From assembly GCA_965112635.1 (NCBI GenBank), contig OZ218778.1, positions 437,807 through 501,806 of the forward strand: 64,000 bases of DNA. The letters are read 5' to 3'. Origin of the DNA: an uncultured bacterium (GTDB taxonomy: Bacteria > Oederibacteriota > Oederibacteriia > Oederibacteriales > Oederibacteriaceae). Under the pieces are notes generated by a model. The model was not told the DNA's origin and did no database searches. It worked only from the letters and a program-made list of their open reading frames with translations. Of the stretch, positions 12,189 through 46,359 are shown piece by piece (the first letter of the stretch is position 1; the number at the start of each line of letters is the position of its first letter). The position numbers and the translations under genes are program-made.

Positions 12189-12242
12189 CGACCTGCCCTT
12201 CCCAAGACTGGATAACCGCCAAGCGTCTGTTCCAAGGGCGGC

Positions 12243-13889: not shown

Positions 13890-14119
13890 AATGTCGAGGG
13901 TTACTCCTTTTATGAATTAAGAAAGCATCACTGACTCGGCATGAAATGCTTTTATCTCTTTAATTGACCAAGCTTAATCCCAGAACAGCATTATACATTA
14001 ATCAAATGTATCATAACTTACCCTTAAACTTGTTCGAAGTACGGCTTGGCTTTGACATTAACCATAAAATAAAATTTATCTATTTAATCTCCACTGATTC
14101 TTTTTTTAAATTGCTTAAT

Positions 14120-18117: not shown

Positions 18118-19004
18118 TCAATGGCTTGGTCCAACCCCTGCTCCAGATCGTACTTGGGGTGGAAACCGACCTCATCTTTTAACCGCCCAACATCTGCCGT
18201 GAGCTGAAAGGGTTCATTTTCAGGAAAAGGGACCGCACCAAAGTCGACCAAGCCCATTCTGCCTAACTTCAAGGCGATCGTTTCAACGACCTGTCGGACG
18301 GGTTGGGCTTGGCCCGAAGCAATATTGACCGGACCTTCCACCCCAGAATCCAAAAGGGCCACAAAAGAGTTCGCGACATCTTCCACGTGCATGAAATCCC
18401 TTTGCTGGCGGCCATGGGTGCATCGGGCGCGTTCTCCTTTTAATAACGCAAGGATTACTGAGGGGACTAACCGGGCAGGGTTTTCATAGGGACCGTAGAG
18501 AAGGAAGATCCTTCCCCAGGCCCCGCTTAGTCCGTTCTGCTGGCAGGTGGCTGTAAAGGTCTGCTGCAGCAAATGCTTGCTTTTTCCATACAAAGTACCG
18601 GGATTCAAGGGTGTTCGCCCCTCTAGGCACGTCCCATAGCTCCAATCGTATTCAGCACAGGTGCCGGCGAACACCAAACGTTTCCCGCCGTTCCTAGAAA
18701 AGTTCTTGAGAAGCTCTTGGCTGGCCTGCACCCAACGGTGGTTTTCCGGGGAGGCCCAGAACTTACCATGTACGGCATACCAGGCGAAATGAAGGAGAAA
18801 GGAAGGTTTGACCTCTGCAAAAAGCTCTGCCTGCGCCCTGGGGTCCAAAAGGTCGCATTCATGCCTTTGGACTTTTTGAGGAAGCCAAGCCATTTCACGG
18901 GTCCGGATATCGGCCAGATGTACCTCGTATCCGCGTCTCAGGAGTTCAGGAAGAGCCTGGCGACCGATGAATCCGCCGCCTCCGGTCAGGATGATCTTTT
19001 TCAT
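18075..19004 (-). CDS. NAD(P)-dependent NDP-sugar epimerase/reductase (SDR family); probable 4-ketoreductase of the CDP-sugar branch
   Basis: GGGGFIGRQ Rossmann motif and YGKSK catalytic motif. Co-operonic with rfbF, rfbG, the C-methyltransferase and the RmlC-like gene. Confidence 0.7.
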   Translation of the reverse strand: MKKIILTGGGGFIGRQALPELLRRGYEVHLADIRTREMAWLPQKVQRHECDLLDPRAQAELFAEVKPSFLLHFAWYAVHGKFWASPENHRWVQASQELLKNFSRNGGKRLVFAGTCAEYDWSYGTCLEGRTPLNPGTLYGKSKHLLQQTFTATCQQNGLSGAWGRIFLLYGPYENPARLVPSVILALLKGERARCTHGRQQRDFMHVEDVANSFVALLDSGVEGPVNIASGQAQPVRQVVETIALKLGRMGLVDFGAVPFPENEPFQLTADVGRLKDEVGFHPKYDLEQGLDQAIEWWKEHGGLPKAGG

Positions 19005-19531
19005 GGTTCAAAATCCGGATAGCTCAAGTCTTTCTCAGAAATGGCGGTGACGGGCAAAGGCCATTTGATCCCAAAGGCCGGATCATCCCAGCGCACCCCT
19101 TGAGCGGACTCCTTGTGGAAATAACTGGACATCTGGTAAAAGACCTCGGTGCGATCCTGTAGGGTCTGAAAACCGTGCGCCAAACCCTTGGGAATATAGA
19201 GCATCCTATGATTGTCGGCCGAAAGTTCCACGGCATAGGTTTTTTTGAAGGTTGGGGAATGAGGGCGGAGGTCAACGACCAGATCCAGGATAGCGCCCCG
19301 GGTGCAGCGGACGACCTTGCATTCTTCATGGGGGGCCGCTTGAAAATGCATCCCCCTGACCGTTCCCTTTTTGTGGTTAAAGGAAATGTTGCACTGGACC
19401 AGCTCCGGCTCCAGGCTGTGATCGACGAACTCTTGATGGCACCAGCTTCTGGCAAAAAACCCCCGTTCGTCGCTCAGGGGATCCAGATCGATGACCCAAA
19501 CGTCTTGGAGGGGAGTTTCCAAAAATTTCAC
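19001..19531 (-). CDS. RmlC-like cupin NDP-4-keto-6-deoxyhexose 3,5-epimerase
   Basis: The 176-aa product has the RmlC family core (RGMHFQ...K...YIPKGLAHGFQTL). Confidence 0.75.
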   Translation of the reverse strand: MKFLETPLQDVWVIDLDPLSDERGFFARSWCHQEFVDHSLEPELVQCNISFNHKKGTVRGMHFQAAPHEECKVVRCTRGAILDLVVDLRPHSPTFKKTYAVELSADNHRMLYIPKGLAHGFQTLQDRTEVFYQMSSYFHKESAQGVRWDDPAFGIKWPLPVTAISEKDLSYPDFEP

Positions 19532-20763
19532 GGGAGGACCTCGGTCTCAGGGATAGGAACGACGAATTGGCCTCCCCACTCTTTGATATAGGACATTTGT
19601 GCCATGACCTCGCTCTTCAAATTCCAGGGGAGGATCAGTAAATAGTCCGGCTTGGTTTTTTTTATCCTATCCGGGGAAAAGATGGGGATATGGGTTCCCG
19701 GCAGGAAATGGTTCTGTTTATAAGGGCTCCTATCTACCACATAGTCGATCAGGTCTGTCCGGACCCCGCAATAGTTCAAAAGGGTATTGCCTTTGGCCGC
19801 CGCCCCATATCCCACCACGACCTTTCCCTTTTCTTTGGTTTTTATCAGGAATTCCAAAAGCTTGCCTTTGGCCCGAACAGCCTTTTGGCCGAACGAGGTA
19901 TAAGTCTCCAGCTGGTCCAGACCGGCTCTGATCTCCTTGTCCTTGAGCGAGGCGACCCTGGGGCTCAGGGCCTGGATGCCGGTATCCTCATGCTGCCCAT
20001 AGATCCGCAAAGACCCGCCGTGAGTGGGCAGCTCTTCCACATCGAACAAAATCAGTCCGTGTTTCTTGAATATGGCTTCCACCACCATGAAAGAGAGGTA
20101 GGAAAAATGTTCGTGGTAAATGGTGTCGAACTGGTTCTTCTCCATCAGCTGTAGGAGATGGGGAAATTCCATGGTGATCACCCCGGCGTCTTGCAGGATC
20201 ACCTTCATGCCGGCCACAAAATCATTGATGTCCGGCACATGGGCCAGCACATTGTTGCCCAGGAGCAGGTCAGCTTGGACGCCTGAGTCTTTCAGCTCTT
20301 TTGCGGTTTGGACGCCGAAAAACTCGACCAAGGTTGGTATGCCTTTTTCTTCCGCTACCTTGGCAACATTTTTTGCCGGCTCGATGCCGAGAATGGGGAT
20401 GTTTTTCTTTTTGAAATACTGGAGCAGGTAACCGTCGTTACTGGCGATCTCGATCACCTGGCTGTCTTCGCCAAGCGCGAATCTTTCCGTCATCGCTTGG
20501 ACATACTGGGCGCAATGGCTTAGCCAGGCGTCGGCATAGGAGGAGAAATAGGCATAATCGCTGAAAATATTCTCAGGGCTTTCAAATTCTTCCAGCTGAA
20601 CCAGGAAACATTTATCGCACACATAGGCATGGAGCGGATAAAAAGGCTCCATTTTCTTGAGGTTTTCGGGTTTAACATAAGCATTGGAAAGCGGGGACAT
20701 GCCCAGGTCGACAAAGGTCTTTGTTAAAGAAGCCCCGCAAAACCTGCATTTTCCGGTGTTCAT
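19528..20763 (-). CDS. NDP-hexose C-methyltransferase (TylCIII/EvaC type), copy 1, in the CDP-sugar branch
   Basis: N-terminal Cys4 Zn-binding CRFCG...CDKC, a central class I MTase fold, and the C-terminal C-methyltransferase domain. Good RBS (GGGAGGG). Confidence 0.75.
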   Translation of the reverse strand: MNTGKCRFCGASLTKTFVDLGMSPLSNAYVKPENLKKMEPFYPLHAYVCDKCFLVQLEEFESPENIFSDYAYFSSYADAWLSHCAQYVQAMTERFALGEDSQVIEIASNDGYLLQYFKKKNIPILGIEPAKNVAKVAEEKGIPTLVEFFGVQTAKELKDSGVQADLLLGNNVLAHVPDINDFVAGMKVILQDAGVITMEFPHLLQLMEKNQFDTIYHEHFSYLSFMVVEAIFKKHGLILFDVEELPTHGGSLRIYGQHEDTGIQALSPRVASLKDKEIRAGLDQLETYTSFGQKAVRAKGKLLEFLIKTKEKGKVVVGYGAAAKGNTLLNYCGVRTDLIDYVVDRSPYKQNHFLPGTHIPIFSPDRIKKTKPDYLLILPWNLKSEVMAQMSYIKEWGGQFVVPIPETEVLP

Positions 20764-21826
20764 TTACCCTCCCTGGCCATATAGTCTTCGATCTGCATAT
20801 CGGTAAATCCGCGCATATCCCGTTTTTCTTGATAAGCCTTATACCAATCAGCGGTCCATTTCAAGGCCGTGGCCAGGTCCAATTTAGGATGCCATCCCAG
20901 TCTTGTATTAGCCTTGGTGGTGTCCAATTTTAAGAGGCGGGCTTCATGGGGATGCATCCGGGCATCTTTTTTCCAGGCAGCTTTACCTCTCCACTCTTGG
21001 GCCAATCTATCAACCACCCAGGAAACAGGTTTACACCCCTCTTTTTTGGGCCGAAATTCCACCCCTCGGCGAATTCGTCCCCTTTCTGCCATAATTTTTC
21101 CACGAGTTCCATATATCCGAAAACAGGTTCCAGGACATGCTGCCAGGGCCGCACCGCGCCGGGATGGCGCAGTACCACAGGCCTCCCAGCCATAAAGGAG
21201 CGCATGACATCGGGGACCAGCCTGTCTTTGGCCCAATCCCCCCCGCCAAAGACATTCCCAGCCCTGGCCGAAGCGACCGCAGCCGATCCTTTTCTCACCG
21301 AAAAAAAGGACCTCCGGTATGAGGCGACTGCAAGCTCCGCGCAACCTTTGCTGCTGGAATAGGGGTCGTGCCCGCCCATGGTATCCTCTTCGCGGTAACC
21401 CCTGGCCCACTCCCTGTTCTCATAGCATTTATCCGTGGTGATGATCAAAACCGCCCTGGTCCCTCTGGTTTGACGGACCGCCTCCAGGACATTGACCGTC
21501 CCCATGAGGTTAGTATCAAAGGTTTCGACGGGGAATCGGTAGGAATGCCGCAGGATAGCTTGAGCCGCCATATGAATAACGATCTCAGGTCTGTATTTTT
21601 TCATGACCCGGACCAGAGGGTTCAGATCTCGGATGTCTCCCTTCCGGGAGACCATCCCTTGATCCACCTGGAGGATCTCGAACAGGCTGGGACGGGTGGG
21701 AGGATCCAGTGAATAGCCAATGAGCCTAGCACCCATCTTTTTCAGGATTACGGAAAGCCATCCACCCTTAAAACCGGTATGACCGGTCAACAGGACCCTT
21801 TTCCCTTTCCAAAACTGCGGGGTCAT
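20760..21826 (-). pseudogene. rfbG: CDP-glucose 4,6-dehydratase (RfbG/DdhB) with a 1-nt frameshift in an A6 run at about 21049-21054
   Basis: The N-terminal 300 aa (frame of ORF 20930..21910 from MTPQFW) match RfbG through ...EGWNFGP. The true RfbG C-terminus (KPVSWVVDRLAQEW...HPHEARLLKLD...LGWHP) continues in the -1 frame, inside ORF 20760..21410. One extra A would give ...NFGPKKEGCKPVSW... as a single 355-aa protein. Confidence 0.7.
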
Positions 21827-22593
21827 CCCCACATCCTCCACGGAGCTTTTCCCGAAGACCACAGGTCGTTGAGATAGTGCTTGTCCCGGAGAGTATCCAT
21901 GGGTTGCCAAAATCCTTCATGCTTGTAGGCGTTAAGCTCTCCCTCTTGGGCCAGCCGCTCTAGTGGCTCCCTTTCCCATACCGTCGAGTCGCTCTGGATA
22001 TAATCGATGACCTTGTGAGAGAGTACGAAAAACCCCCCATTGATCCACCCTCCGTCCCCTTGAGGCTTTTCCTGAAAACCGGTCACGGCTTGACCTTTCA
22101 TTTGTAAAGCTCCAAAACGGCCTGGCTGACGGGTCGCGGTCAGGGTGGCCAACCGTTTTGACCGTTTATGAAAGGAGAGGAGTTCGGCCAGGTGCACATC
22201 GCCCACTCCATCCCCATAGGTCATACAAAAATCTTTGCCCTCCAGATAGTCCCGTATCCGCTTCAACCGCCCGCCGGTCATGGTGCTTTCACCGGTGTCT
22301 ACCAGGGTCACTTTCCAGGGTTCCGCGCTGTTCTGATGGACCTTCATGCGATTGTGCTTCATATCAAAGGTCACATCCGACATATGGAGGAAGTAGTTAG
22401 CAAAATATTCTTTGATCAAATACCCCTTATACCCCAGGCAAATAATGAACTCGTTGAGCCCAAAATGGGAATAGATCTTCATGATATGCCAAAGGATCGG
22501 CTTCCCCCCGATCTCGATCATGGGTTTGGGCTTGAGGTCTGTCTCTTCTGAAAGCCGCGTCCCCATTCCACCCGCTAAAATGACAACCTTCAT
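21823..22593 (-). CDS. rfbF: Glucose-1-phosphate cytidylyltransferase
   Basis: [14 protein letters not shown]...[19 protein letters not shown] and full-length similarity to RfbF/DdhA. The start is placed at MKVVIL. Confidence 0.85.
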
Positions 22594-22650: not shown

Positions 22651-25600
22651 CTATATCATTTTAGTCTTAAAATTTGGAGGAGCGTCCTCCAAGTTCGGGT
22701 TATAGTAAGGATCAACCTTGGTTTTCCATCGCCACAGTTTGACGAACAGGTCTATTTCCTTTTGGCTTACGCTCTTTTCGCGATTTTGAGATTCGTAATG
22801 GTAAAACAGGCCGAAGGGCGTATACACGATCCGGTAGCCGGCTTCGTGGACCCGGAGGCAATAATCGATATCATTGTAATTCACCGCGAATTCCTCATTG
22901 AACCCCTTCAATTTTTTGAACAGGTCCCTGCGCGTCATCATGCACGCACCCGTCACCGCCAGATAGTTGCGGTTTCCGCAGAGATTGAAAAAGTGCCCTG
23001 GAAAATCCCCGGGATATCCCCTAAAGACATGGTCCGGCAGGCCGTCAATGAATGACACACCGCCATGCTGGAGCGTGCCGTCCCCGTAAAGGAGTTTGGG
23101 ACCCACAACGCCCACATGGCAGTTTTGCATGATCCCAACCATACCTTCGAGCCAGTCCGGGCTGATCAGCTTCACGTCGTCGTTCATAAAAAAAAGGAAT
23201 TCGCCTTTGGCTACCCTTGCCCCTAGGTTCATTTTTTTAGCTACATTGAAGACCGGCTCCCTATAATGAACGAACTCCTTGGCAAGTCTTCTCACATGCT
23301 TTAGGGTTTTCTCGCGCAGGTCTCCGTTATCCACTACAATGATCTCAAAATTCCGATAGGAACTTTTCTTCACGATGGACTCTATACATTCAGCCAAAAG
23401 ATCGGTTTTATGTCCTTTGACCTCCGCGTCCCTGCCCGCGCTAGGTATTACGATCGACACCAAAGGTTCATCCTTGACCTCATACCGGACATAAAAGCAT
23501 CCGGCAAAAGGGCTGTTGCTGACCTTGGCTTTTCCGTTCTTCCTTTCAACACGGCCGCCCAATGCTTTAATAGCGGCATCGGTAACATAATGTTTTTGCT
23601 CCATGGTCAAAGCTGTGGAACCAGGAATGGCTCGCCAGTGATAGAAAACTTTGGGAATATGTTTGATCTTTCTGGCTTTTTCTGTGAATCTTAGAACAAA
23701 ATCAAAATCCTGCGCACCTTCATACCCAAGCCGCATGCCTCCTAGTTCCTTGACCAGAGAGGACCTATAACAAGCTAAGTGCGCGATATACATGCAGGAT
23801 TCAAGGTATTCCGGAGACCAGTCCGGCTTGAAGAAAGGTTCGTAGCGCTGTCCCCGGATGCTGATTTTATCCTCATCGCTGTATATCAGATCTATTTCCC
23901 GGTCCTGGTTGAGCATCCGGGCAAATTCAAAAAGCGCATCAGGAGAAATTTCGTCGTCATGATCCATAAGACAAATATAATCCCCCGTGGCAAGTTCGAG
24001 GGCGGAATTGGTGGAAGCTGAGATATGACCGTTTTTTTCGCGGAAGACAACTTTGATCCTGGGATCCTTGTCGCGGTATCTCTCCAGGACTCGTCTTACA
24101 TGGGACTGAGTGGAGGCGTCATCGGCCAGGCATATTTCAAAATCCGGATAGATCTGACCTAGGATAGAATCCAAGCAGGCATTCAGCCAATGCTCTTCTA
24201 CATTATAGACCGGGATGGCAAAAGAAAATCGAGGACGCCAGCTGAAAGATTTGATCTCATTAGACATTTGGACGCAATCCTGATCCGTAAAGGTATGTTT
24301 TTTTAGCCAGAACTGGTACCGTTCATAATCCAATCTATCCAAGGACTGGAACTGCCCTCTAAGCCGTTGCTTTAAAGAGGCGTATCCCTCGGTAAGCATT
24401 ATTCTAAGGACCTTCAGAGCAAATGTCTTCAAGGTCCCCTGACTAAAGTGATGTTGAAGCTTTTTAACAATGACCGTGAAGCCGATCTCCAAGCGGGTAA
24501 CTTGATAAAGTTCAAGACCAGCTAAGGCGAACTCTGTCGCGTCCGGGAAAGGAACCACTTTGATTTGCAAAATATCACTATTTAATGGGAGAAAGACCGG
24601 CCTCATTTTGATATCAGAGAATCGGATAATCAAAGGATTGGTCACGATAAATCCTTGACCATAATTGAAATACAAATAAATCATTTCTGGCATCGGAACC
24701 GACCCCTGATAGGATACCTTAACCCAGCCTCGCGGAAGTTCAGCCTCTAAAATGAATTCAGAGCTTGGCCTGGCCATCCTCCATCGATTCTCTTTGTCAA
24801 GGATAGGTTCCACATCAAGAAAAGGTTTAAATTTTATAGGGACCTTTTTTCTTAAAAAAAACATTTTCTGTTTTTTGGGACCAAGAAAGCTCCTAAGATA
24901 ATTCTCACGCTCTTCCGTTGTGGTCGGCTTATACGATCTCGTCGGGTCCAGGCTCAGGAGTCGGGCATAGTAACGGACATCCGGTATATGGTCAGCATAG
25001 GTTCTCGTAAATGTTCCCAGTTCTAGAGAAGGGACCAAATCATCCAGATTTTTGGCGCACAGGCCGGACATGAAAGGCGTAAAGACAATCCTTTTCTTTT
25101 GTCTCATGGCATGGGCCCCTGTCCAGGCACCCAAAAAAATCAGAGAGCCACCTGCCCACCTGCCATTTTCCAAAAGCTCCAACAAAAAGGACGCATCAAT
25201 AACTGAAAGGGCACTGGAAACTGCGCTAACCGAATGCGGCTTCCACATCTGGCCGAAATATCCCGGCTTGTCCTTAGAATACCCTCGATCCGGACAGCCC
25301 ACCGCTCCTCCAAACCCGAAGTAGTCCCCTGCGGCCAAGAGATCTCCCTTTTCATTGAAAATCCTTCCTCCGACCATGACCGTATCAGGAAAAAGCTCGA
25401 AATATTTCAGCGTTTCCCAAGGCCAGGAACTCCCCTCCGTTTTGACCCCCTGATAGAGCGTATGGACATATCCTCCGGCTTGCGCTGTATCTCTTACTAG
25501 ATCGGCTATCTCCTTGGGTGTCGCCACCAATGGGACCGCTCTTACCTGATGAACAGGATAGGCCGCGGAGTTCAAAAGAGCACCGCCATCAAAGGTCTCC

Positions 25601-27414
25601 GGATCGTCGCAAAAAACCAAGGTCAGGAAAGGTTTGGAATTTTTATGACCCGGAAAAATGTGCCAATCCGGTGTTTTCTTGTCAAAAAGCGGGCTCAGAC
25701 CGATAGTATATTGTTCGGATGGCCGACAAGATGTCAGGTACTTCCCTATAACGTGTTTTTGGGAATCATAGACATAAGCTTTGGATTCGATATTCAAGGC
25801 GCAAGAATCCGAATGCATGCGCCAGCTATAGAGGATCTCAGGGACGTGTACCGGAACTTGTCCGGCAAGTGTAAAACGCATGAAAGTGTCCCAGTCGTGA
25901 CATCCTTCGGCCTGGGGATCGGAATAGACACCCAACTTCAAAGCGGTTTCCCTATGAATAGCGCCTAAATGGGCTATATAACAGGAGTGGGTAAAAAGGA
26001 CCGGGTCCCAGTCGGGTTTAAGGTAGGGATCGCTCCGCGTTTCTTTCCATCTTTTTTCCTGTTCAATATAAATGAGCCGGATCTTATCTTCATCGGAATA
26101 AAAAAGGTGTGCATTCGGGTTTTTGCGGATATACCACTCCATGATGCGGAGGCTGTCTGGATAAAGGGTATCGTCCGAATCCATGGGGAGAATGAACCGT
26201 CCCTTGGCCTGTTCCAGGCAATATCGCATGCCACCCATTATCCCCAGGTTGTTCTCCACGCGAAAAAGTCTGACCTGTTTATTTTGACCTAACCTCTTGA
26301 GGAACTGGACCGTATCAGGAGCCGTGGAACCATTGTCCAACACGATCCATTCGAAAGAGGGTCGGCCTTTTTGGGACCGTACGCTTCGAGCTAAAGCTTC
26401 TAAATATCGGACCTGGGTATTCCAGGTGCACGTTAATAGCGACATGGTTTTTGCTTCGTTAGGCGCTTTGAAACCATGCGAAATACGTTCCAACCACCCA
26501 TCCTGGTAGCTGTTTCGGCGGTCCCGGACCCTCTTTCGTATCCATAGTTCGTATTCATTCTCATCTCGCATGCCCAGCAAGAACTTCAGGAGGCGCTTGA
26601 TTGCTCGGCCCGGCACTGTCCCGAGGAATTTACGGACCATGGGGTTCATTTTAAGCTTTTCTTTGAGGGTTGTTGGGGCCGCTTCCTCGCGTTTTTTCTG
26701 TTCTTCGTGGCGCTGGTTTTCCAGCTCTTTCTCATGAGATAAGACCCTGGCCGTGAGTTTCTCCGTAAAGAGGATCAGATCTTCTTCAGAGATGGACGGT
26801 CCTTTTTTGAAGACCATGGCCTGAAGTGTCAGGACATCGGGATTGAGTGTGGCATCAGGGTGAAAGCCGTTCTCTCGGAATATTCTGGCCCAATACAAAA
26901 TGGGACGCACATTGATATGGGTCGGTTCGGTAAAATCCGTGGGGGAAGAGGAAAAAAGCACGGCCCCGGCCTTTTCCGTGAGATGCTTGATGCATGCCCG
27001 GCCATCTTGATCCGTCAGATGCTCCACAACCTCAATGCAGGTGACAAGATCATATTCTCGGTTAAGCGGTTCGGTCGCCAAGCCTACCCGGCAGTAGGGA
27101 CGGATGTCTTCACGAACTTGGCTGATAGCGTACTTGGACACGTCCACGCCGTAAGCCAGGACACCGCGGTCCCGGAGCGCCTCCACCAGGAAACCTTTGG
27201 CGCAGCCCACGTCCATGACGGTTCTAGGCTTAAGGTTCTGAACGATCCAGTCCGCCACTTTCCCAAAAAAGTCTAGAAAATGCGGATGACTCCGGTCGTA
27301 TGGGATTGGGCCACAATTATTTTTATAATACTTTTTGCCGAAAAGGGATTGTGCCTTACCAATATTGATTCCGTCATGTTTTTTCAAGGATCTTCCCCGC
27401 CAAATCAAATCCAA
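22651..27414 (-). CDS. 1587-aa multidomain glycan-assembly enzyme (WbdA/WsaE-like): an N-terminal SAM methyltransferase followed by three GT2 glycosyltransferase domains
   Basis: MTase motif I VMDVGCAKGFL and post-I CIEVVEHL. The three GT2 modules begin about aa 330 (WIVLDNGS...PMDSDDTLYPD), about aa 750 (FAIPVYNVEE...ADDAST...DHDDEISPD) and about aa 1230 (VSIVIPSAG...VVDNGD...FMNDDV). The gene sits directly downstream of wzm-wzt-MTase. Confidence 0.8.
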   Translation of the reverse strand: MDLIWRGRSLKKHDGINIGKAQSLFGKKYYKNNCGPIPYDRSHPHFLDFFGKVADWIVQNLKPRTVMDVGCAKGFLVEALRDRGVLAYGVDVSKYAISQVREDIRPYCRVGLATEPLNREYDLVTCIEVVEHLTDQDGRACIKHLTEKAGAVLFSSSPTDFTEPTHINVRPILYWARIFRENGFHPDATLNPDVLTLQAMVFKKGPSISEEDLILFTEKLTARVLSHEKELENQRHEEQKKREEAAPTTLKEKLKMNPMVRKFLGTVPGRAIKRLLKFLLGMRDENEYELWIRKRVRDRRNSYQDGWLERISHGFKAPNEAKTMSLLTCTWNTQVRYLEALARSVRSQKGRPSFEWIVLDNGSTAPDTVQFLKRLGQNKQVRLFRVENNLGIMGGMRYCLEQAKGRFILPMDSDDTLYPDSLRIMEWYIRKNPNAHLFYSDEDKIRLIYIEQEKRWKETRSDPYLKPDWDPVLFTHSCYIAHLGAIHRETALKLGVYSDPQAEGCHDWDTFMRFTLAGQVPVHVPEILYSWRMHSDSCALNIESKAYVYDSQKHVIGKYLTSCRPSEQYTIGLSPLFDKKTPDWHIFPGHKNSKPFLTLVFCDDPETFDGGALLNSAAYPVHQVRAVPLVATPKEIADLVRDTAQAGGYVHTLYQGVKTEGSSWPWETLKYFELFPDTVMVGGRIFNEKGDLLAAGDYFGFGGAVGCPDRGYSKDKPGYFGQMWKPHSVSAVSSALSVIDASFLLELLENGRWAGGSLIFLGAWTGAHAMRQKKRIVFTPFMSGLCAKNLDDLVPSLELGTFTRTYADHIPDVRYYARLLSLDPTRSYKPTTTEERENYLRSFLGPKKQKMFFLRKKVPIKFKPFLDVEPILDKENRWRMARPSSEFILEAELPRGWVKVSYQGSVPMPEMIYLYFNYGQGFIVTNPLIIRFSDIKMRPVFLPLNSDILQIKVVPFPDATEFALAGLELYQVTRLEIGFTVIVKKLQHHFSQGTLKTFALKVLRIMLTEGYASLKQRLRGQFQSLDRLDYERYQFWLKKHTFTDQDCVQMSNEIKSFSWRPRFSFAIPVYNVEEHWLNACLDSILGQIYPDFEICLADDASTQSHVRRVLERYRDKDPRIKVVFREKNGHISASTNSALELATGDYICLMDHDDEISPDALFEFARMLNQDREIDLIYSDEDKISIRGQRYEPFFKPDWSPEYLESCMYIAHLACYRSSLVKELGGMRLGYEGAQDFDFVLRFTEKARKIKHIPKVFYHWRAIPGSTALTMEQKHYVTDAAIKALGGRVERKNGKAKVSNSPFAGCFYVRYEVKDEPLVSIVIPSAGRDAEVKGHKTDLLAECIESIVKKSSYRNFEIIVVDNGDLREKTLKHVRRLAKEFVHYREPVFNVAKKMNLGARVAKGEFLFFMNDDVKLISPDWLEGMVGIMQNCHVGVVGPKLLYGDGTLQHGGVSFIDGLPDHVFRGYPGDFPGHFFNLCGNRNYLAVTGACMMTRRDLFKKLKGFNEEFAVNYNDIDYCLRVHEAGYRIVYTPFGLFYHYESQNREKSVSQKEIDLFVKLWRWKTKVDPYYNPNLEDAPPNFKTKMI

Positions 27415-27433
27415 AAATATTATTCACAACCAG

Positions 27434-28594
27434 TCACATTCGACGAAAGCTAACAACAAATTCATCAGTATGTGCGTAAGGTTCAAATGTTTCTTCCAAA
27501 GAAAGGGGTAAAAGCTTAAGCCTCCTGATCACTTCCCAGCACTCAATGAATGAATCAAGCGTCCAAACATTGCAGTGGACATCATGATAATGATTATTTG
27601 ATAACAGATCGACAGCTGCCTGAAATGCTGATTTCAATTTTTCATCATTATAGGTGGAAGTTTTTACAGGCTTTGGTTCAATGTATGACATAAATGCTAT
27701 AAAATCAAACACCTGCTTGACCGAAGGGCGTTCCAGATTCCGTATGTAGGCATCCACTAGGTCTGATGGGGTGGACAGAGCGCGAAAATGGTCAAAAGTG
27801 CGTGTTTTCTCGGGAATCGCCAAATTGATCAGACCTCCTGGCTTAATGACCGAAGCGATCTGGGACAGCCATCCTATGGGGTTCGGGACATGCTCTATCA
27901 CATGTGCCGCAACGCAGTAATCAAAAGTTATATCCTGCGGGATCACATTTCGGATAGGCCCGCCGGACCAGATAAAATCAATATCGCAAATCTTGTCTAT
28001 ATCTACGTATATCGTTTGATTTGCCTTGTATTTTTTTATGAGACCGTCCCTGTCCGCATGGTCTACATATTTGACATTGGTTTTTTGTTTGGAGAGAAGC
28101 GGGCGGTCAAGCGGACCCAGCTCTATCCCAACCATGGTATCCAGGGATATTCCCCTCAATAGCCGCCTCAAACGCTCTTGATGCCAGGTGCATGGTGAAT
28201 TCACCAGATGCGCGCCATTGGGGAAACGGACTTCCAGGGTATCCGAGACGGTCAACGGTTCGGGGAAGTTGAAGTTAAAGCCAGCTTCCCGCGGCAATCC
28301 CGCCGCTGCAAGATCATCCCTGGAGTTATTTGGCGGCACCCGAGCCAGCAATTTACCGTTTAAAAAAAGGTCCACGGAGGATGGCTGTTTTTTTGAATCA
28401 ACCGCCCAGCCGGCTATATGGCTTTGGTGGCACATATCTACGTACCCCTGGTAACCGCCCTTATCCTCGGCTCCAAGCGGACGCTTGTTAAAGCTAAACG
28501 CGCTCAGTCCGGATTTGAAAGAAGATAACAATTTGCGTATTGTCCCTTTTTTGTGTTCAGTCATGATCAATCCTTTAACATGCGCCATTGACAT
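27434..28594 (-). CDS. Putative chain-terminating methyltransferase (WbdD-like position; divergent MTase fold with an N-terminal beta-rich domain)
   Basis: The C-terminal half has an MTase-like layout (GIELGPLD...; CVAAHVIEHVPNP...IKPGGLINLAIPE). The gene order wzm-wzt-this gene-polymerase mirrors E. coli O8/O9a wzm-wzt-wbdD-wbdA. The start is uncertain (28594 or 28564). Confidence 0.45.
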   Translation of the reverse strand: MSMAHVKGLIMTEHKKGTIRKLLSSFKSGLSAFSFNKRPLGAEDKGGYQGYVDMCHQSHIAGWAVDSKKQPSSVDLFLNGKLLARVPPNNSRDDLAAAGLPREAGFNFNFPEPLTVSDTLEVRFPNGAHLVNSPCTWHQERLRRLLRGISLDTMVGIELGPLDRPLLSKQKTNVKYVDHADRDGLIKKYKANQTIYVDIDKICDIDFIWSGGPIRNVIPQDITFDYCVAAHVIEHVPNPIGWLSQIASVIKPGGLINLAIPEKTRTFDHFRALSTPSDLVDAYIRNLERPSVKQVFDFIAFMSYIEPKPVKTSTYNDEKLKSAFQAAVDLLSNNHYHDVHCNVWTLDSFIECWEVIRRLKLLPLSLEETFEPYAHTDEFVVSFRRM

Positions 28595-29799
28595 GGAAGA
28601 TACGCAACCCCAAGGTTTCCCTTAACTTTTTCTGATTCTAAAACTATGAATGGAAAATGCTTATCCCAATGGTCATAACATATTGAACCGGTATAATTAT
28701 AAATAGCCGCCGTAAAATTATATCTCCCGGGTAAAAGGGGTAACGAATCGATCGAATATTCAACGGCTCCCTCCCCCTTAACAGTCGAAGTATTAAAATC
28801 ACTTATCTTGGTATTGGTACCATTGACATGGAACCCGTCTTCACGATGAATGGCCACACCGAACATAGGCTTTTCTATTTCTTTATGAGCAATATATTCA
28901 ATATGCACAGCAAAAGGTTCATTGGTTCTAAAAACATTACCCATGGTTCCATCACTTTTCACAAAATTGACGGCTGTAATTTCCATTTCTTTGTTCCCCC
29001 ATCGGTTCGGGACATTTTGATAATGCAGGGTGCGGCGGACAGCTTCGGCGTTGGTGTGCAAGAGTTGGTGATACGTGGCGATCACACTATTCGGCTCCCC
29101 GATCTTAAAGCATGCCCCCTGGTCCAGAAGACACACCTGGTCGCACATCTGCTCCACCGCATTGAGGTCGTGGGATACCAGCAGGATGGTCTTGCCGCTT
29201 TTCCTCAGGTCCCTTACCTTCTCAAGGCACTTGGCCTGGAAACTTTCGTCACCCACGGCAAGGATCTCGTCGATGATCAGGATATCGGGGACCACATGGA
29301 TGGCCACGGAAAAGGCCAGCTTCATGTACATGCCGCTGGAGTAGGTTCGGACCGGGTCGTCGATATACTCCCCCATCTCGGCGAACTCGACGATCTCGTC
29401 GAACTTGGCCTTGATCTGGTTTTTGGAGAGTCCCAGGATGATACCGTTGATGATCACGTTTTCCCGCCCTGATAATTCAGGATGGAATCCGGCTCCCAGC
29501 TCGATCAAAGCGGCGATATTGCCTTGGACCGTGATAGCGCCCTCGTCCGGCTTGAGAATGCCGCTGATCAGTTTGAGAAGGGTGCTTTTACCCGAACCGT
29601 TCCTGCCGATGATCCCAAGCGTGGTCCCTTTTTCGATTTGCAGAGTAACGTCCTTTAGGGCCCAAAGCAGATCCCTGCCAGTATCCTTTCGGGGATGCCA
29701 TAGGTCGTAAAGGATATAGGATTTAAGGGAGGTCATGATGGGCCGCCGTCCATGGCGGGAGAATTTTTTTGACACTCCTTTTATCTCGATACTGTGCAT
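28567..29799 (-). CDS. wzt: O-antigen/glycan ABC transporter ATP-binding protein with a C-terminal carbohydrate-binding domain
   Basis: Walker A GRNGSGKST, signature YSSGM, Walker B ILIIDE. An extra ~150-aa beta-rich C-terminal domain is typical of Wzt proteins that recognise a terminal glycan modification. Confidence 0.85.
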   Translation of the reverse strand: MHSIEIKGVSKKFSRHGRRPIMTSLKSYILYDLWHPRKDTGRDLLWALKDVTLQIEKGTTLGIIGRNGSGKSTLLKLISGILKPDEGAITVQGNIAALIELGAGFHPELSGRENVIINGIILGLSKNQIKAKFDEIVEFAEMGEYIDDPVRTYSSGMYMKLAFSVAIHVVPDILIIDEILAVGDESFQAKCLEKVRDLRKSGKTILLVSHDLNAVEQMCDQVCLLDQGACFKIGEPNSVIATYHQLLHTNAEAVRRTLHYQNVPNRWGNKEMEITAVNFVKSDGTMGNVFRTNEPFAVHIEYIAHKEIEKPMFGVAIHREDGFHVNGTNTKISDFNTSTVKGEGAVEYSIDSLPLLPGRYNFTAAIYNYTGSICYDHWDKHFPFIVLESEKVKGNLGVAYLPCQWRMLKD

Positions 29800-29802
29800 G
29801 GC

Positions 29803-30579
29803 CTACACTTCCTCCGCGAAAACGTCTTTTCGTGAATCAAAGAACATCAAGGCCAATACAAAGAAGACTAAAGTGAAAAGGGTCAGCAGGGCGAGACCCG
29901 TGAGGGAAGGCATCCGGTCATAAAAGAAAATATCATGGTAAGCCCCGATGAACCAAGCCATGGGGTTGTAGTTCAGCAGAAACTGATATTTGGCCGGGAT
30001 CATGCTCTCGGGATAGACCACCGGCGTGGCGAACATCCAGATCATAAGGAGATTGGGAACGATATGTATCAGGTCCCGGAACTGCACCACCAGGGAGGAA
30101 GTGATCAGGGTCAAACTAAAAGCAAAGACGAACTGGACCGCCATAATGAAGGGCAGGAGAAGCAGGATCCATGAAAATTTGATCCCAAAACAAGCCAAAA
30201 AGATCAAAAGAATAGGAAGGCTGAGCAGATAATGGATCATGGTCGAGGCCGTGGTGACCAGGGGAAATATCTCCGCGGGAAGGGACACTTTTTTGATCAG
30301 GCCTCCGTTGACCAGGATAGAGCTGGACCCCTCGGTCAGCGCCGACGAGAACCACGCCCAGGGCAGGATCCCGCACAGAAGATAGGCGGAAAAATGCTCC
30401 ATCTGTACCCGCATATATACGGAGAACACAAGCACATAGATCAGCATCAAAAGTAGAGGGTTGATGAAGGACCACAAAAATCCCAGGGAAGTGCCCCGGT
30501 ACCGCACCTTGAGCTCTTTCGCGATAAGCACCTGGGCCAGGCCGTAATACCTATAAAGCTGAAGGATGCGTTCTATCAC
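29803..30579 (-). CDS. wzm: ABC-2 type polysaccharide export permease
   Basis: 258 aa with six predicted TM helices and ABC-2 family features. Translationally coupled to wzt. Confidence 0.85.
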   Translation of the reverse strand: MIERILQLYRYYGLAQVLIAKELKVRYRGTSLGFLWSFINPLLLMLIYVLVFSVYMRVQMEHFSAYLLCGILPWAWFSSALTEGSSSILVNGGLIKKVSLPAEIFPLVTTASTMIHYLLSLPILLIFLACFGIKFSWILLLLPFIMAVQFVFAFSLTLITSSLVVQFRDLIHIVPNLLMIWMFATPVVYPESMIPAKYQFLLNYNPMAWFIGAYHDIFFYDRMPSLTGLALLTLFTLVFFVLALMFFDSRKDVFAEEV

Positions 30580-30657: not shown

Positions 30658-31659
30658 TTATGCGTTGTTCTTTAGATAGATGATCGTGCTTCCTTCTTCT
30701 TCAAATTTGAAATCAACTTCCAGAAGGCCTTTCAACGCTTTCCTCACCGCGGATTTTTTTGACGGGTCCACGATAAAGGTCAGAAATCCGCCGCCGCCGG
30801 CTCCGGCGATCTTGCCGCCATAGGCTCCGGCTTTGACGGCGCGGCTGTAAGCCTGATCGATGAACTGGTTGGACACTTGTTTTGAAAGCGACTTTTTCAA
30901 CTCCCAGCCTTGTCGCATGAGTTTTCCCAGCGCGGACAGCATATGCTTCTCAGGTTCATCGGAAATGATCTTCACGGCCCTATCCACCATGCGGTACATT
31001 TCCTTAAGATATTCATCGTTCCTTTTAGCCTGGGTCCGCTCTATCTGCTCATGGAGCACCTCATGAGCTAGGCGTGTTTGGCCGGTATAAAAAACCATCA
31101 GAGAGCTTTCCAGGAGCTTGCGTTTCTCCCGGGTAATGATGAGCGGCTGGACTTTATACTCTGAGCCGCTGAACCGGATGATATTGATCCCCCCATAGGC
31201 GGCGAGGATCTGGTCCTGGAAGCCAACGTTTTCCCTGAGCATTTCATGCTCAACATACAGGGCGTCTTTGGCCAGTTGGTCCTTGGAAACGACCTTGCCT
31301 TCTGAAGCATAAAGAGCATGGAGGAAACCAACCGTAAACGCCGAGGAGGACCCCAGGCCCGACCGGGCCGGGAGATCGGCGAAGATATGGATATCAAGAT
31401 TGCCGCCGATCTTCTTGAATTTCAGGCATTCCCTCACGCTGGGATGTTCGATCTCCTGGATCGAATTGACCAACTCAGCTTTGGAATACCCTACTCTTAT
31501 CTTATGGTCAAAAAAATCACTTAAATAATTGAGACTGATATAGATGTACTTATTAATCGTAGTCCCCAGAACGGCCCCTTCGTTCCGGGAGAAATACTGC
31601 TTGTAGTCTGTGCCGCCGCCAAAAAAACTGATGCGGACCGGTGTCCTGGAAATGATCAA
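30658..31659 (-). CDS. GHMP-family sugar kinase (HddA-like D-glycero-D-manno-heptose 7-phosphate kinase / fucokinase-like)
   Basis: GHMP motifs PVRISFFGGGTD and ARSGLGSSSA (ATP-binding). The size and N-terminus resemble HddA. Confidence 0.7.
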   Translation of the reverse strand: MIISRTPVRISFFGGGTDYKQYFSRNEGAVLGTTINKYIYISLNYLSDFFDHKIRVGYSKAELVNSIQEIEHPSVRECLKFKKIGGNLDIHIFADLPARSGLGSSSAFTVGFLHALYASEGKVVSKDQLAKDALYVEHEMLRENVGFQDQILAAYGGINIIRFSGSEYKVQPLIITREKRKLLESSLMVFYTGQTRLAHEVLHEQIERTQAKRNDEYLKEMYRMVDRAVKIISDEPEKHMLSALGKLMRQGWELKKSLSKQVSNQFIDQAYSRAVKAGAYGGKIAGAGGGGFLTFIVDPSKKSAVRKALKGLLEVDFKFEEEGSTIIYLKNNA

Positions 31660-31734
31660 TGTGCCTCCTTGGGCTCTTTGAGCCTCATCGTTCTATCTCG
31701 ACTCATCAATATAACACCAATTTTCATTGCCTGG

Positions 31735-32991
31735 CTACCCCTTAGGGCCTTTGCCCATCCGGTCCACCAATAACTCGGCAAAAACAAAAGAACAGGTAAA
31801 AGCAGGTGAAATGGAGTTCAAGACGTGGGTGGAATCCGGGGTCTGCTCGATGACGTAATCCATTTCCAGGGAGCGGGTGCGGATATTGACAAGCTGGGGC
31901 CTGATTCCGACCTTGGAGGACGGGATAAGGTCATCCACGGCCAGTTCCGGCACTAGCCGTTGGGCTGACCTGAAAAAATTCGATTTCAGGTATTTTTTGA
32001 TCTCCGTATGGACCATCATCCTGAAATGGTGCTCGTTCTTGATATACATTCCGGCCAGCTGCCAGAGTATGCCTACGGATTCCACGGGCCTTATGCCCTC
32101 CAAAATGCCGTAATTTTCGCGCCCAAAAGCCGGGATGGAGGTCGGACCCACGAAGACATCCTCCCCGATCAGCCTGGTCAAATGCACCCCGAGAAAAGGG
32201 AGGAACAGATTGGGCACCGGATAGATATTATTCCTAACCAGGGTGCTTTTCTCCGGACGCAGCTTGTAATAAAGGCCCTTGAACGGAAGCAGGGTATAGT
32301 CCCCGGCCAGGCCGAATCTTTTCGCTATCACATCCGCGTAAGCCCCGGCGCAGTTGAAAAGGTATCCGTATCCGACAGCCCGGGAAGGCGTATAAACCAT
32401 TTTCTCTTTGGGCTTAATTTTGATGACGGTCTGGTTAAAATGGATCTCCACTCCGTTGGCTTTGAGTATCTCTTGCAGTTTATTCAGGACCGCGTGGATA
32501 TCAATGACCGATGTGTCCGGGCAGAAAATACCTTTGCGAAAAGGCCCGGCATGCGGCTCCAGTTCCCTGACTCCCTTCTCATTCAGCTCCACGGCGTTTA
32601 TATGACTTTCTTTGGCGTTGACCAGCAGTTTTTGTATCACCGGCAGGTCCTGCTCGCTGGTCGCGATGATCACCTTACCCGAACGCTTGCAGGGGATCTG
32701 GTATTCCTGGGCGAAGTCGCGCATTCTGGACGCCCCCGCGGCGCATAATTTCGCTTTAAGAGTGCTGCTGGAGTAATAGATACCGGAATGAAGCACCCCG
32801 CTGTTGCGGCCGCTGGCATGGGCCCCCAAATAACTTTCTTTTTCCAGGACGGCGATTTTTGACCCAGGAAACCTTTTTCTTAACTCCAGAGCGGCGGCCA
32901 GGCCGATGATGCCCGCGCCGACGATAAGGTAATCGTAATTTAATGAGCCGGATACAGATATGGGCGCGGGAGCGGCTTGAGGTTTATCCAA
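31735..32991 (-). CDS. FAD-dependent oxidoreductase (LhgO / L-2-hydroxyglutarate oxidase-like family)
   Basis: Dinucleotide-binding GxGxxG (DYLIVGAGIIGLAAA) and overall similarity to the LhgO/DAO family. The substrate is unknown. Confidence 0.65.
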   Translation of the reverse strand: MDKPQAAPAPISVSGSLNYDYLIVGAGIIGLAAALELRKRFPGSKIAVLEKESYLGAHASGRNSGVLHSGIYYSSSTLKAKLCAAGASRMRDFAQEYQIPCKRSGKVIIATSEQDLPVIQKLLVNAKESHINAVELNEKGVRELEPHAGPFRKGIFCPDTSVIDIHAVLNKLQEILKANGVEIHFNQTVIKIKPKEKMVYTPSRAVGYGYLFNCAGAYADVIAKRFGLAGDYTLLPFKGLYYKLRPEKSTLVRNNIYPVPNLFLPFLGVHLTRLIGEDVFVGPTSIPAFGRENYGILEGIRPVESVGILWQLAGMYIKNEHHFRMMVHTEIKKYLKSNFFRSAQRLVPELAVDDLIPSSKVGIRPQLVNIRTRSLEMDYVIEQTPDSTHVLNSISPAFTCSFVFAELLVDRMGKGPKG

Positions 32992-34928: not shown

Positions 34929-36131
34929 TTAGTTCTCTTTCGGATTGACGGGAAAATAGAATTGTATCCCCCGCTCTACGAGGTTCTTATTGTTTTCCAA
35001 TATTTCTTTTTTAAAATTCCACGCCAGGACATAATAGACATCGGGTAGTTCTTTAAGCTCTTTCTCTATGACCACCGGAATATGCATACCTGGTGAATAT
35101 AGGTTGCGCCTCAATTCGTTTTTTTCCACCAGACAGTCGATCATATCTGTCCCCACTCCGAAGTAATTCAGCATGGTATTACCTTTGACGGGAGCGCCAA
35201 AGCCGAATATTTTTTTCCCAGAACGCTTGGCCTGGCTTAAAAACTCCAGATTTTCTTTTTTCATCCTCTGGATGCGGCGGTAAAACTCCTGATAGGTTTC
35301 GATGCGATTGAACTCCGCCTCTTCTTCCAATTGCCGCATTTTTTTAAGATTTTGGCTTATCTCTTTTTTGCCGCGGTGCGTGACATACCCCACGATGGAG
35401 CCGCCATGGATCGGGTGCAGTTGGGCGTCGAACATTTCTAGTCCATGTCGGCTCAACAGGATCTCAATGGTTTTCAGGGTATAGTAAAGCAAGTGTTCAT
35501 GATAGACCTGGTCAAAAGCCAGGTTCTCCACTATATTTTTCATATATAGGAATTGAACAACAAAAACACCGTTTTCTTTAAGACCCTCTCTGATTCCATC
35601 CGTCACGGAATGAAGCTCTTCCAGATGGAAGAAAACCCCGGCAGCATTGATAACATCGAATTTCCTTCCGATCTGTTTCATGGTCTCAAGATTGAAAAAC
35701 TGGTTCAGGGTGGGCACGCCTGCGTCCACTGCTATTTTGGCAGTGGTCTTGGAGGATTCCACCCCCAGAACCTCATAACCTAGCTTCTGGAAATGTTTGA
35801 GCTGGGTACCGTCATTGGAGCCTATATCCAGGACCGACTTGGCCGGGGTCGTCTTAAAAAACTTCTCATCCACTTCCACAGCCGTCCTGCGAAAATGTTC
35901 ACCTAGTGATTTGGTCACTCCGGAAAGATAGGTATGGTCCCCGAACATGATCTCTTTTTTGACCGTGTAATCAAGCTGCACCGTGGAGCACTTATGGCAA
36001 AACAGAAGATGGAGAGGATAAAAAGGCTCCTTGCCTACTTCCTCTTTTTTCAAGAAATGGTTGCACCAGGGTTGAGACCCCAGGTCTACAACAAGCTCTA
36101 GTTTGTCGGAATCACAGACACGGCAGTTCAT
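34929..36131 (-). CDS. NDP-hexose C-methyltransferase (TylCIII/EvaC type), copy 2, in the GDP-sugar branch
   Basis: The architecture matches 19528..20763: Zn-binding CRVCDS...CHKC, MTase motif I VLDIGSNDG, and the C-terminal C-methyltransferase domain. Confidence 0.75.
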   Translation of the reverse strand: MNCRVCDSDKLELVVDLGSQPWCNHFLKKEEVGKEPFYPLHLLFCHKCSTVQLDYTVKKEIMFGDHTYLSGVTKSLGEHFRRTAVEVDEKFFKTTPAKSVLDIGSNDGTQLKHFQKLGYEVLGVESSKTTAKIAVDAGVPTLNQFFNLETMKQIGRKFDVINAAGVFFHLEELHSVTDGIREGLKENGVFVVQFLYMKNIVENLAFDQVYHEHLLYYTLKTIEILLSRHGLEMFDAQLHPIHGGSIVGYVTHRGKKEISQNLKKMRQLEEEAEFNRIETYQEFYRRIQRMKKENLEFLSQAKRSGKKIFGFGAPVKGNTMLNYFGVGTDMIDCLVEKNELRRNLYSPGMHIPVVIEKELKELPDVYYVLAWNFKKEILENNKNLVERGIQFYFPVNPKEN

Positions 36132-39660: not shown

Positions 39661-39736
39661 GGGGAATTAAGAACATACGGCACAGGCCCGCATCTACATA
39701 TTGTCATTCAGTTAGTGATCCTAGATGCCTGCTCGA

Positions 39737-46075: not shown

Positions 46076-46099
46076 ATCTTTCCCTTTTTCCTTGCAGAC

Positions 46100-46165
46100 T
46101 CTTAAAAACATGAAAAACAAAACCTTATTTTAGCCTGTTTTGGGGGCGTAAACTACCCCAAACAC
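46100..46165 (+). repeat. Copy 2 of the ~60-bp dispersed repeat (see 43165-43225)
   Basis: cttaaaaac...ttttagcctgttttgggggcgtaaactaccccaaac, in the same orientation as copy 1. Confidence 0.5.
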
Positions 46166-46359
46166 ACCACTTCCAGGGGCTAATTTATCAAGGGTTCCAG
46201 GGGAGTTTCAATAGGGGATGGGGGGGAGGCGGGATGTCAAATGTCAGACCTGCCCTCCGTAGTGTTTTAAAGGGGGGACGCGACCCCGGGTGTTCTCTCA
46301 GCACCCCCTTGTGGGGTGGTTCTAGAACTACCGAACTAGCGTCTCCGATGCAATGGCCG

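Follow-up and report, generated by a model that had tools for sequence, protein, structure and literature searches.

A probable transport-elongation-termination operon for ABC-transporter-dependent surface-glycan assembly, with a large methyltransferase-glycosyltransferase open reading frame, in an uncultured Oederibacteriota bacterium

We analysed a 64,000-nucleotide (nt) stretch of DNA, hereafter the window, from an uncultured bacterium of the family Oederibacteriaceae (GenBank assembly GCA_965112635.1, contig OZ218778.1, positions 437,807 to 501,806). On the minus strand of the window, four open reading frames (ORFs) form a tight operon encoding the two components of an ATP-binding cassette (ABC) transporter, Wzm and Wzt, a methyltransferase-fold protein of 386 amino acids (aa), and a 1587-aa protein that combines a methyltransferase (MTase) with several glycosyltransferase (GT) domains. 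The domain identities, homologies, motif conservation and gene order are direct results of this analysis. With the enzyme functions predicted from them, we consider it probable that the operon forms the transport-elongation-termination core of a surface-glycan cluster that depends on an ABC transporter, and that it is real, coherent and of a known kind. The four genes are as follows.

30579..29803, minus strand: wzm, an ABC-2 permease of 258 aa (PF01061 ABC2_membrane, E 5e-18)
29799..28567, minus strand: wzt, an ATPase with a C-terminal carbohydrate-binding domain, 410 aa (ABC_tran PF00005 and Wzt_C PF14524)
28594..27434, minus strand: the 386-aa ORF (Methyltransf_23, E 2e-8)
27414..22651, minus strand: the large ORF, 1587 aa (Pfam Methyltransf_23/11/12/25 at residues 60-160 and three Glycos_transf_2 stretches)

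In coordinates, strand and Pfam families, these ORFs agree with the wzm-wzt-methyltransferase-large ORF arrangement that an initial annotation had described from the DNA letters. The public genome contains a gene call of 1578 aa for the large ORF, with identical sequence, and a Logan contig that spans 10.7 kb here matches the window at every base. The wzm and wzt genes are adjacent and 3 nt apart. Wzm has five hydrophobic segments in a hydropathy scan and matches the NCBIfam Wzm/RfbD and KpsM models, both below the cut-off. Wzt is composed of an ATPase domain (residues ~43-247) and a carbohydrate-binding domain (CBD; residues ~262-406, nt 28582-29016, minus strand). As PF14524 matches Wzt at 84.7 bits (cut-off 30.4), and as residues 43-406 align with full-length Aquifex aeolicus Wzt (8dku/7k2t; E 2e-77) through both the nucleotide-binding domain and the CBD, the extra C-terminal domain that had been assigned to this protein is present.

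The start of the 386-aa protein is uncertain (the public gene call is 365 aa), and the Pfam match covers the second half of the Methyltransf_23 profile alone. An AlphaFold2 model (predicted local distance difference test score, pLDDT, 88.6; predicted template modelling score, pTM, 0.84) contains ~37 disordered N-terminal residues, a beta-rich domain (residues 49-125) and, over residues 137-386, a class I methyltransferase fold of the Rossmann type. The Foldseek matches of this model in the PDB number in the hundreds and are all class I S-adenosylmethionine (SAM) methyltransferases (E ~1e-6, 10-16% identity), none of them a close relative. Motif I is atypical ('GIELGPLDRP', or GxELGPLxxP), and residues E158, G160, L162, P165, D178, E234 and H235 are invariant across the family alignment; the conserved acidic residues at the presumed cofactor positions are compatible with SAM binding. 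We found no kinase family match in this protein (Pfam/NCBIfam), no WbdD chain among its PDB sequence matches at E up to 1, and no coiled coil, which was scored here and throughout with a home-made heptad heuristic rather than a dedicated predictor.

To define the anatomy of the 1587-aa protein, the large ORF was cut into pieces and each was compared with its 120 best homologues. Its segments are given below, where GT2 denotes glycosyltransferase family 2 and D4 is a fourth domain of the GT-A type.

26800..27267, minus strand: WsaE-type N-terminal class I methyltransferase, residues ~50-205 (Pfam), with a canonical motif I 'DVGCAKG' at residue 68
25690..26514, minus strand: GT2-1, the first half of module A, residues 301-575 (Pfam GT2), with DSDD at 412-415
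24910..25689, minus strand: D4, a GT-A-like domain and the second half of module A, residues 576-835 (hhalign)
24280..24831, minus strand: beta-sandwich (residues ~862-972) and helices (residues ~973-1045) leading into GT2-2
23515..24279, minus strand: GT2-2, the first half of module B, residues 1046-1300 (Pfam GT2 at 1064-1224), with DHDD at 1151-1154
22654..23514, minus strand: GT2-3, the second half of module B, residues 1301-1587 (Glyco_tranf_2_3 at 1319-1552), with NDD at 1411-1413

The N-terminal methyltransferase domain, taken as residues 1-215 when the protein was divided, matches the same domain of ~95 homologues at E 1e-50 to 1e-77, GT2-1 matches module-A proteins at E up to 1e-103, and GT2-2 matches chondroitin synthase (2z86) at E 1e-24. 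GT2-1 and GT2-2 are paralogues (29% identity, E 2e-29). D4 had no Pfam match in the profile scan of the large ORF; its family aligns with the GT2-3 family with 98.3% hhalign probability (E 2e-14 over 235 columns), and on this profile comparison D4 is predicted to be a full-length, divergent GT-A domain. The N and D of the NxD motif are each present in 59 of 60 members of the GT2-3 family, and the same columns are variable in the D4 family; in the large ORF, the NxD/DxD position of D4 is occupied by Y654-Q655-G656. As this Tyr-Gln-Gly is not a metal motif, D4 is most likely not a metal-dependent transferase, and thus probably non-catalytic. In the other proteins examined, D4 always follows a GT2-1-type domain, and we refer to the pair as module A.

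The beta-sandwich was modelled by AlphaFold2 with a pLDDT of 60 from a four-sequence alignment, and the Foldseek matches of this model in the PDB are weak, resembling jelly rolls or carbohydrate-binding modules (best E 4e-3). The sandwich/helices region is homologous to the pre-GT region of three other proteins (P0019, P0025 and P0095) and of a 738-aa protein from the related locus L013. Thus, of the N-terminal methyltransferase and three GT2 modules that had been proposed for this protein, the methyltransferase and the three Pfam GT2 domains stand, but the complete set comprises four GT-A domains, with D4 detected by hhalign, and a beta-sandwich. Hydropathy scans predicted no membrane segments in either the large ORF or the 386-aa protein, and the large ORF had no kinase family match in profile scans and no WbdD chain among PDB sequences at E up to 0.01.

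The layout of this protein can be compared with that of known glycan assembly systems. In Geobacillus stearothermophilus NRS 2004/3a, wzm, wzt and wsaE overlap; WsaE contains an N-terminal 2-O-methyltransferase followed by alpha-1,2 and alpha-1,3 rhamnosyltransferase domains, and its methyl cap has been proposed to be read by Wzt (PMC2943079). WsaE and the large ORF both place an O-methyltransferase and two GT2-type domains in one soluble protein whose gene lies just downstream of wzm-wzt, a likeness of layout as the literature describes it. The WsaE-like layout suggested by the initial annotation is borne out by the N-terminal methyltransferase ('DVGCAKG') and by two consecutive, motif-bearing GT2 domains (DHDD in GT2-2 and NDD in GT2-3), from which the methyltransferase is separated by ~840 residues. 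WsaE also has the layout of the commonest homologues found here (MTase-linker-GT2-GT2, ~900-1300 aa). In comparison to WsaE, however, the window ORF contains an extra module (a GT2 and the DxD-less GT-A domain) and the beta-sandwich between the methyltransferase and the GT2 pair, and in comparison to the wsaE cluster, a second methyltransferase gene is located between wzt and the large ORF, with no dTDP-rhamnose genes in the window except that an RmlC-type epimerase, alone of that set, passes the cut-off.

ORF6 of the Klebsiella pneumoniae O7 cluster is a 1414-aa protein whose N-terminal terminator is a methyltransferase-kinase and which also has a coiled coil and, at its C-terminal side, two GT2 modules containing DXDD and NXD motifs (PMC11231755). 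It resembles the window protein in being a single chain that works with a Wzm/Wzt transporter and in having, in its GT modules 1 and 2, the same DXDD and NXD pair as module B. O7 ORF6 makes a methyl-phosphate cap and includes a kinase and a long coiled-coil ruler, whereas the window ORF has neither a kinase family match nor, by our heuristic, a coiled coil, and has two additional GT-A domains. A third relative is the TET operon for the Pseudomonas syringae common polysaccharide antigen (CPA), in which the gene order is wzm-wzt-MTase-GT and the methyltransferase and GT are fused in some isolates (PMC7820976). This operon and the window share a four-function gene order and a methyltransferase-only terminator candidate, but the P. 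syringae GT is annotated as glycosyl transferase family 1 and described as homologous to WbdA, whereas the transferase domains of the large ORF are all of the GT2/GT-A type.

The operon had also been described as mirroring that of Escherichia coli O8/O9a. The gene order wzm-wzt-terminator-polymerase and the logic of a cap-dependent Wzt CBD are indeed shared, but the proteins fall outside the WbdD and WbdA families. E. coli WbdD combines an extended coiled coil with a kinase (in O9a) and recruits WbdA through a membrane-proximal region, features of which none was found in the proteins of this operon, and WbdA is a mannosyltransferase with two GT modules of the GT4/GT-B type, in contrast to the GT2/GT-A domains found here. 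Membership of either window methyltransferase protein in the WbdD or WbbB families was rejected on the same grounds, as no kinase, coiled coil or GT99 domain was present. The Geobacillus wzm-wzt-wsaE genes, Klebsiella O7 ORF6 and the P. syringae TET operon are therefore better-matching relatives than E. coli WbdD/WbdA.

We propose the following pathway for the products of this operon. A polyprenol-linked primer would be made by a Bac_transf phosphoglycosyl transferase (window 7681-9219) and small adaptor GTs, and the GT2 modules of the large protein would extend it in the cytoplasm. Module B would bring to this elongation the DXDD and NXD motif pair that Klebsiella O7 ORF6 has in its two dTDP-rhamnose-dependent modules, and module A would bring one DxD-containing GT2 domain with its metal-motif-less, probably non-catalytic GT-A-like partner. 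Growth would be halted by O-methylation of the non-reducing terminal sugar, with the WsaE-type N-terminal methyltransferase domain as the presumed terminator; the neighbouring 386-aa methyltransferase might act alongside it or in its place. The methylated end would then be bound by the Wzt C-terminal domain, and Wzm/Wzt would export the chain. In this scheme, we infer the donor sugars, the methyl cap, which methyltransferase terminates and the inactivity of the fourth GT-A domain. Among the cluster ORFs of at least 150 aa, no Pfam match to Wzx or Wzy was found. A related locus in a metagenome-assembled genome (MAG) named as a 'delta proteobacterium' (L002) contains wzm, wzt, a methyltransferase and two module-B proteins in the same order; there, wzt lacks a CBD, the methyltransferase is unrelated, and the two module-B proteins are separate.

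The evidence for a methyl cap comes from Wzt. The CBD of Aquifex Wzt binds a 3-O-methyl mannose or rhamnose cap through contacts with Asn313, His350 and the backbone of Ile299, and has a methyl pocket formed by Leu300, Thr346, Ala348 and Trp362, with a trap loop at residues 352-356 (PMC9445017). The Aquifex WzmWzt transporter (7k2t, 8dku) is the best solved relative of the window Wzt, and we mapped residues between the two proteins using a HMMER alignment, with the numbering of the paper equal to the chain number minus one (checked on five residues). Asn313, Thr346, Ala348 and Trp362 are kept in the window Wzt as N329, T363, A365 and W378, respectively; Ile299 corresponds to V315, Val380 to L396, and Tyr233 of the hinge helix aligns with His244. 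As the window Wzt keeps these four methyl-pocket and sugar-contact residues, key to the 3-O-methyl-sugar site of the Aquifex protein, the alignment supports a methylated sugar as the ligand of its CBD. A cap is known to mark a polymer as ready for export by transporters that carry a CBD, and capped O antigen requires this domain for its export (PMC11231755, PMC9445017). The earlier proposal of a single-protein polymerase and terminator for a methyl-capped, ABC-exported glycan is thus supported by the Wzt pocket residues in its general idea of a capped glycan, but its single-chain status hangs on a homopolymer, which is considered below.

We also asked how unusual the large ORF is among its relatives. 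The commonest homologues are MTase-linker-GT2-GT2 proteins of ~880-1300 aa; others are MTase-moduleB-moduleA proteins of 1440-1570 aa in Paraburkholderia and Bradyrhizobium, proteins with tetratricopeptide repeats (TPR) in the order TPR-B-A, and proteins of 1750-2470 aa with WsaF domains and two or three copies of module A. Many homologues of 1400-2470 aa have a methyltransferase and 3-6 GT-A domains, and the size of the fusion, which the initial annotation had singled out, is therefore common in public data. The best non-self match in a search of 5.8 billion proteins covers at most 51% of the large ORF, and no protein that spans D4 into the sandwich was found in that search or, other than the large ORF itself, among 1.84 billion representatives. 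From these comparisons, the domain order MTase-A-sandwich-B appears to be unique, and the class itself not very unusual.

The spacing between the methyltransferase and the first GT domain ranged from 85 to 747 residues in 94 homologues (median 228), such that the ~86-aa linker of the large ORF is essentially the shortest. At least 56 coiled-coil-like residues were scored in the linkers of 61 of these 94 homologues. Although a coiled-coil molecular ruler had been suggested as something to look for, the heuristic detected no extended coiled coil in the large ORF, the 386-aa protein or any other cluster ORF, under conditions where two positive controls (P0015 and P0044) scored strongly. Given the absence of such a ruler, chain length is probably set kinetically, with no fixed spacer.

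Several observations weigh against the proposed pathway. In the window Wzt, the cap-contacting His350 and the methyl-pocket Leu300 of Aquifex are changed to Y367 and A316, and the trap loop is two residues shorter. The linker of the large ORF has no coiled-coil score, and the established terminator paradigm includes a coiled coil. No rmlA, rmlB or rmlD is present in the window, and the adjoining nucleotide-sugar genes are of the CDP-glucose type. Three examined homologues of the 386-aa protein adjoin GT61, epimerase or multi-GT genes, and none of the three adjoins wzm or wzt; for this reason, we rejected the label of a dedicated Wzt partner for the 386-aa family. Finally, the O-methyltransferase-like domains encoded in the cluster number at least five, alongside two sugar C-methyltransferases and one B12-radical SAM enzyme, so methylation could be internal and not terminal.

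If methylation were internal, the methyltransferases would decorate the glycan along its length, yielding a poly-O- or C-methylated deoxyhexan, and the Wzt C-terminal domain would read another feature or act as a general tether. The abundance of methyltransferases in the cluster (a 548-aa MTase-GT2 fusion, proteins of 291, 312 and 386 aa, the N-terminal domain of the large ORF, two Methyltransf_13/14 proteins and the B12-radical SAM enzyme) would be explained in this way, as would the lack of a detectable coiled-coil ruler. However, given the methyl-pocket residues of the Aquifex CBD that are kept in the window Wzt, and the reported role of caps and CBDs in export, we regard this explanation as quite unlikely.

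A second alternative concerns the identity of the terminator. By analogy to the position of WbdD, the 386-aa protein, which is encoded directly after wzt, could be the chain terminator, in which case the N-terminal domain of the large ORF would methylate internal residues or be inactive. The methyltransferase fold of the 386-aa protein is confidently predicted, its putative cofactor-motif residues are kept in the family, and its additional beta-rich domain could bind glycan. Furthermore, a domain of the 386-aa type is fused to the C-terminus of a polymerase-like, multi-GT2 protein of the TPR-B-A class (P0039; E 4e-19), which ties this family functionally to these transferase modules; both methyltransferase types of the window occur fused to A or B GT modules in other organisms. 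On the other hand, motif I of the 386-aa protein is atypical, half of the Pfam profile is matched and its homologues lack wzm and wzt as neighbours, whereas the N-terminal domain of the large ORF belongs to a WsaE-like architecture class whose prototype, WsaE, has reported capping activity. We therefore consider termination by the 386-aa protein unlikely, and retain the N-terminal domain of the large ORF as the preferred candidate.

The status of the large ORF as a single gene depends on a short segment between modules A and B.

24843..24882, minus strand: junction, GGTCCC-A6-CAGAAA-ATG(M851)-TTTTTTTT-AAG-A6-GG, in which TTTTTTTT is T8

At this junction, the point where module-A proteins naturally end adjoins the point where sandwich plus module-B proteins naturally begin, and the alignments indicate that the large ORF joins, head to tail, two units found as separate proteins elsewhere, methyltransferase plus module A and sandwich plus module B. 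Stand-alone proteins of the first kind include P0072 (896 aa), P0014, P0034, P0060 and P0061. Continuity of the ORF over residues ~845-857 hangs on the lengths of three homopolymers. If the first A6 were one base shorter or longer, a stop would follow within 6-19 codons: with A5, the upstream frame ends ...GPKNRKCFF before the stop, and with A7 it ends ...GPKKTENVFFKKKGPYKI before the stop. In either case, the ATG of M851 would open a downstream gene, with an overlap of 13 or 38 nt.

It is therefore possible that the 1587-aa ORF is an assembly artefact, in which a one-base miscall in the A6 before the M851 ATG has merged two overlapping genes, one for methyltransferase plus module A (~855-870 aa) and one for sandwich plus module B (737 aa from M851). 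The operon logic would be the same, but there would be no giant protein. Consistent with this idea, L013 encodes (at 16949-19165) a separate protein of 738 aa whose whole length aligns with residues 853-1586 (42% identity), with its Met1 at residue 853, two residues after M851. Separate methyltransferase plus module-A proteins such as P0072 exist, dozens of D4 proteins end ~5-25 aa from the equivalent of residue ~843 (~843-850), and the span from D4 to the sandwich was found in no other protein of the representative set. The sequence of the junction itself (A6-ATG-T8-A6) would place an early stop in the frame after a single-base change in the first A6.

Frameshifts in the vicinity also bear on this point, as the reading frames of two neighbouring genes are broken at A-runs and a single added base repairs each. 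The CDP-glucose 4,6-dehydratase gene (window 20763-21910, minus strand) is frameshifted at GGCCCAAAAAAG (21052-21036) and breaks at CCCAAAAAAG, the same context as the junction. The first 290 residues of its product match 1rkx/1wvg (E 4e-108), and the conserved C-terminus (HPHEARLLKLD...LGWHP) is in another frame, which one added A restores; this break is either a pseudogene mutation or a homopolymer sequencing error. The phosphomannomutase/phosphoglucomutase (window 4227-5580, minus strand) stops after domain III at a break in an A-rich stretch (4395-4371), and domain IV is encoded just downstream in a different frame. In L013, a MAG with an MFD name like L002, one sandwich plus module-B gene (11793-14073) is in four pieces in different frames, indicating that frameshift errors or decay occur in this assembly group. 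The genomes with MFD-series names may be nanopore assemblies from long reads, in which homopolymer errors would be plausible.

Other data argue that the ORF is intact. The public genome and the Logan contig carry the identical sequence, though both may stem from the same reads, and of the A6 or T6 runs of the window only ~1 in 120 shows a frameshift. CCCAAAAAA occurs at four other places within intact ORFs, and homology crosses two of them (in rho and in the methyltransferase domain), so we rejected a systematic miscall at CCCAAAAAA as a general rule (four of six sites are in intact ORFs). Short-linker fusions of these modules are common in the family, and the M851 ATG has no Shine-Dalgarno sequence, whereas many genes here do. 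The initial annotation had named merged genes as an outcome that would overturn its proposal; the identical public call and Logan contig argue against a merger, yet a one-base homopolymer error would split the ORF. From the evidence on both sides, we consider it likely that the fusion is real and somewhat unlikely that it is an artefact. A more specific version of a real fusion, in which a recent one-base homopolymer slip at a gene overlap has created a ruler-less, single-chain terminator-polymerase with four GT-A domains, and in which D4 and/or the sandwich would bind glycan and so position or measure the chain instead of a coiled coil, we regard as highly unlikely. Under that version, the A6/T8 tract might even toggle between fused and split states.

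The four genes lie within a ~39 kb glycan cluster on one strand, at roughly 4.4-43 kb of the window. The cluster contains the phosphomannomutase gene, a mannose-1-phosphate guanylyltransferase-like gene and the Bac_transf initiating transferase. Its GTs comprise one GT1, several GT2 and the 548-aa MTase-GT2 fusion, with two further methyltransferases, and its sugar genes encode a glucose-1-phosphate cytidylyltransferase, the CDP-glucose 4,6-dehydratase, the RmlC-type epimerase, reductases and a GDP-mannose 4,6-dehydratase. Also present are a GHMP kinase, a flavin adenine dinucleotide (FAD) oxidase and a B12-radical SAM enzyme. Two sugar C-methyltransferases (Methyltransf_13 and Methyltransf_14; 411 and 400 aa) and the B12-binding radical SAM enzyme (19528-20763, 34929-36131 and 40621-42066) accompany the CDP-glucose and GDP-mannose 4,6-dehydratase pathways, which suggests that the glycan contains branched-chain (C-methyl) 6-deoxyhexoses. 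The 548-aa fusion (window 12243-13889) is kept in the L002 locus (18443-20098, E 4e-163), and the closest loci among the species-representative genomes are in 'delta proteobacterium' MAGs, at ~55% identity. Rho from the window shows only 81-83% identity to many MAGs with labels such as NC10/Methylomirabilota and Nitrospinae.

Directly upstream of wzm (30658-32991) are the GHMP kinase, which is closest to the heptose-7-phosphate kinase HddA (below cut-off), and the FAD oxidase, whose score exceeds the cut-off for L-2-hydroxyglutarate oxidase. An 838-aa protein with at least eight hydrophobic segments and no family match adjoins a 252-aa GT2 (37144-40495); L002 has, at a similar position, an 819-aa ORF with no Pfam match that is likely its counterpart, with no direct match between them. 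A 984-aa YfhO-like membrane protein is encoded at 15163-18117. The 838-aa protein, the 252-aa GT2 and the YfhO-like protein look like components of extracytoplasmic glycosylation or transfer. We saw no WaaL-type ligase, and tRNA and Rfam scans of the window gave no matches. Outside the cluster, a low-G+C island (39% compared to ~49%) at ~46000-54000 contains a CoiA-like ORF, ORFs with no annotation, an rve integrase gene that overlaps a TaqI_C fragment and, on the opposite strand, a Mutator-family transposase; it probably represents a mobile or defence island that insertion sequence elements have truncated.

Together, these analyses carry a caution, in that the giant size of the protein rests on one homopolymer in an assembly with frameshifts in two neighbouring genes. 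They also bring to light a widespread, metal-motif-less GT-A-like domain, D4, that was missed by Pfam here and that always follows one type of GT2 domain in the proteins examined. If the proposed pathway is correct, this operon would represent another arrangement of modules for ABC-dependent glycan assembly, with a terminator and a polymerase but without a coiled-coil spacer.

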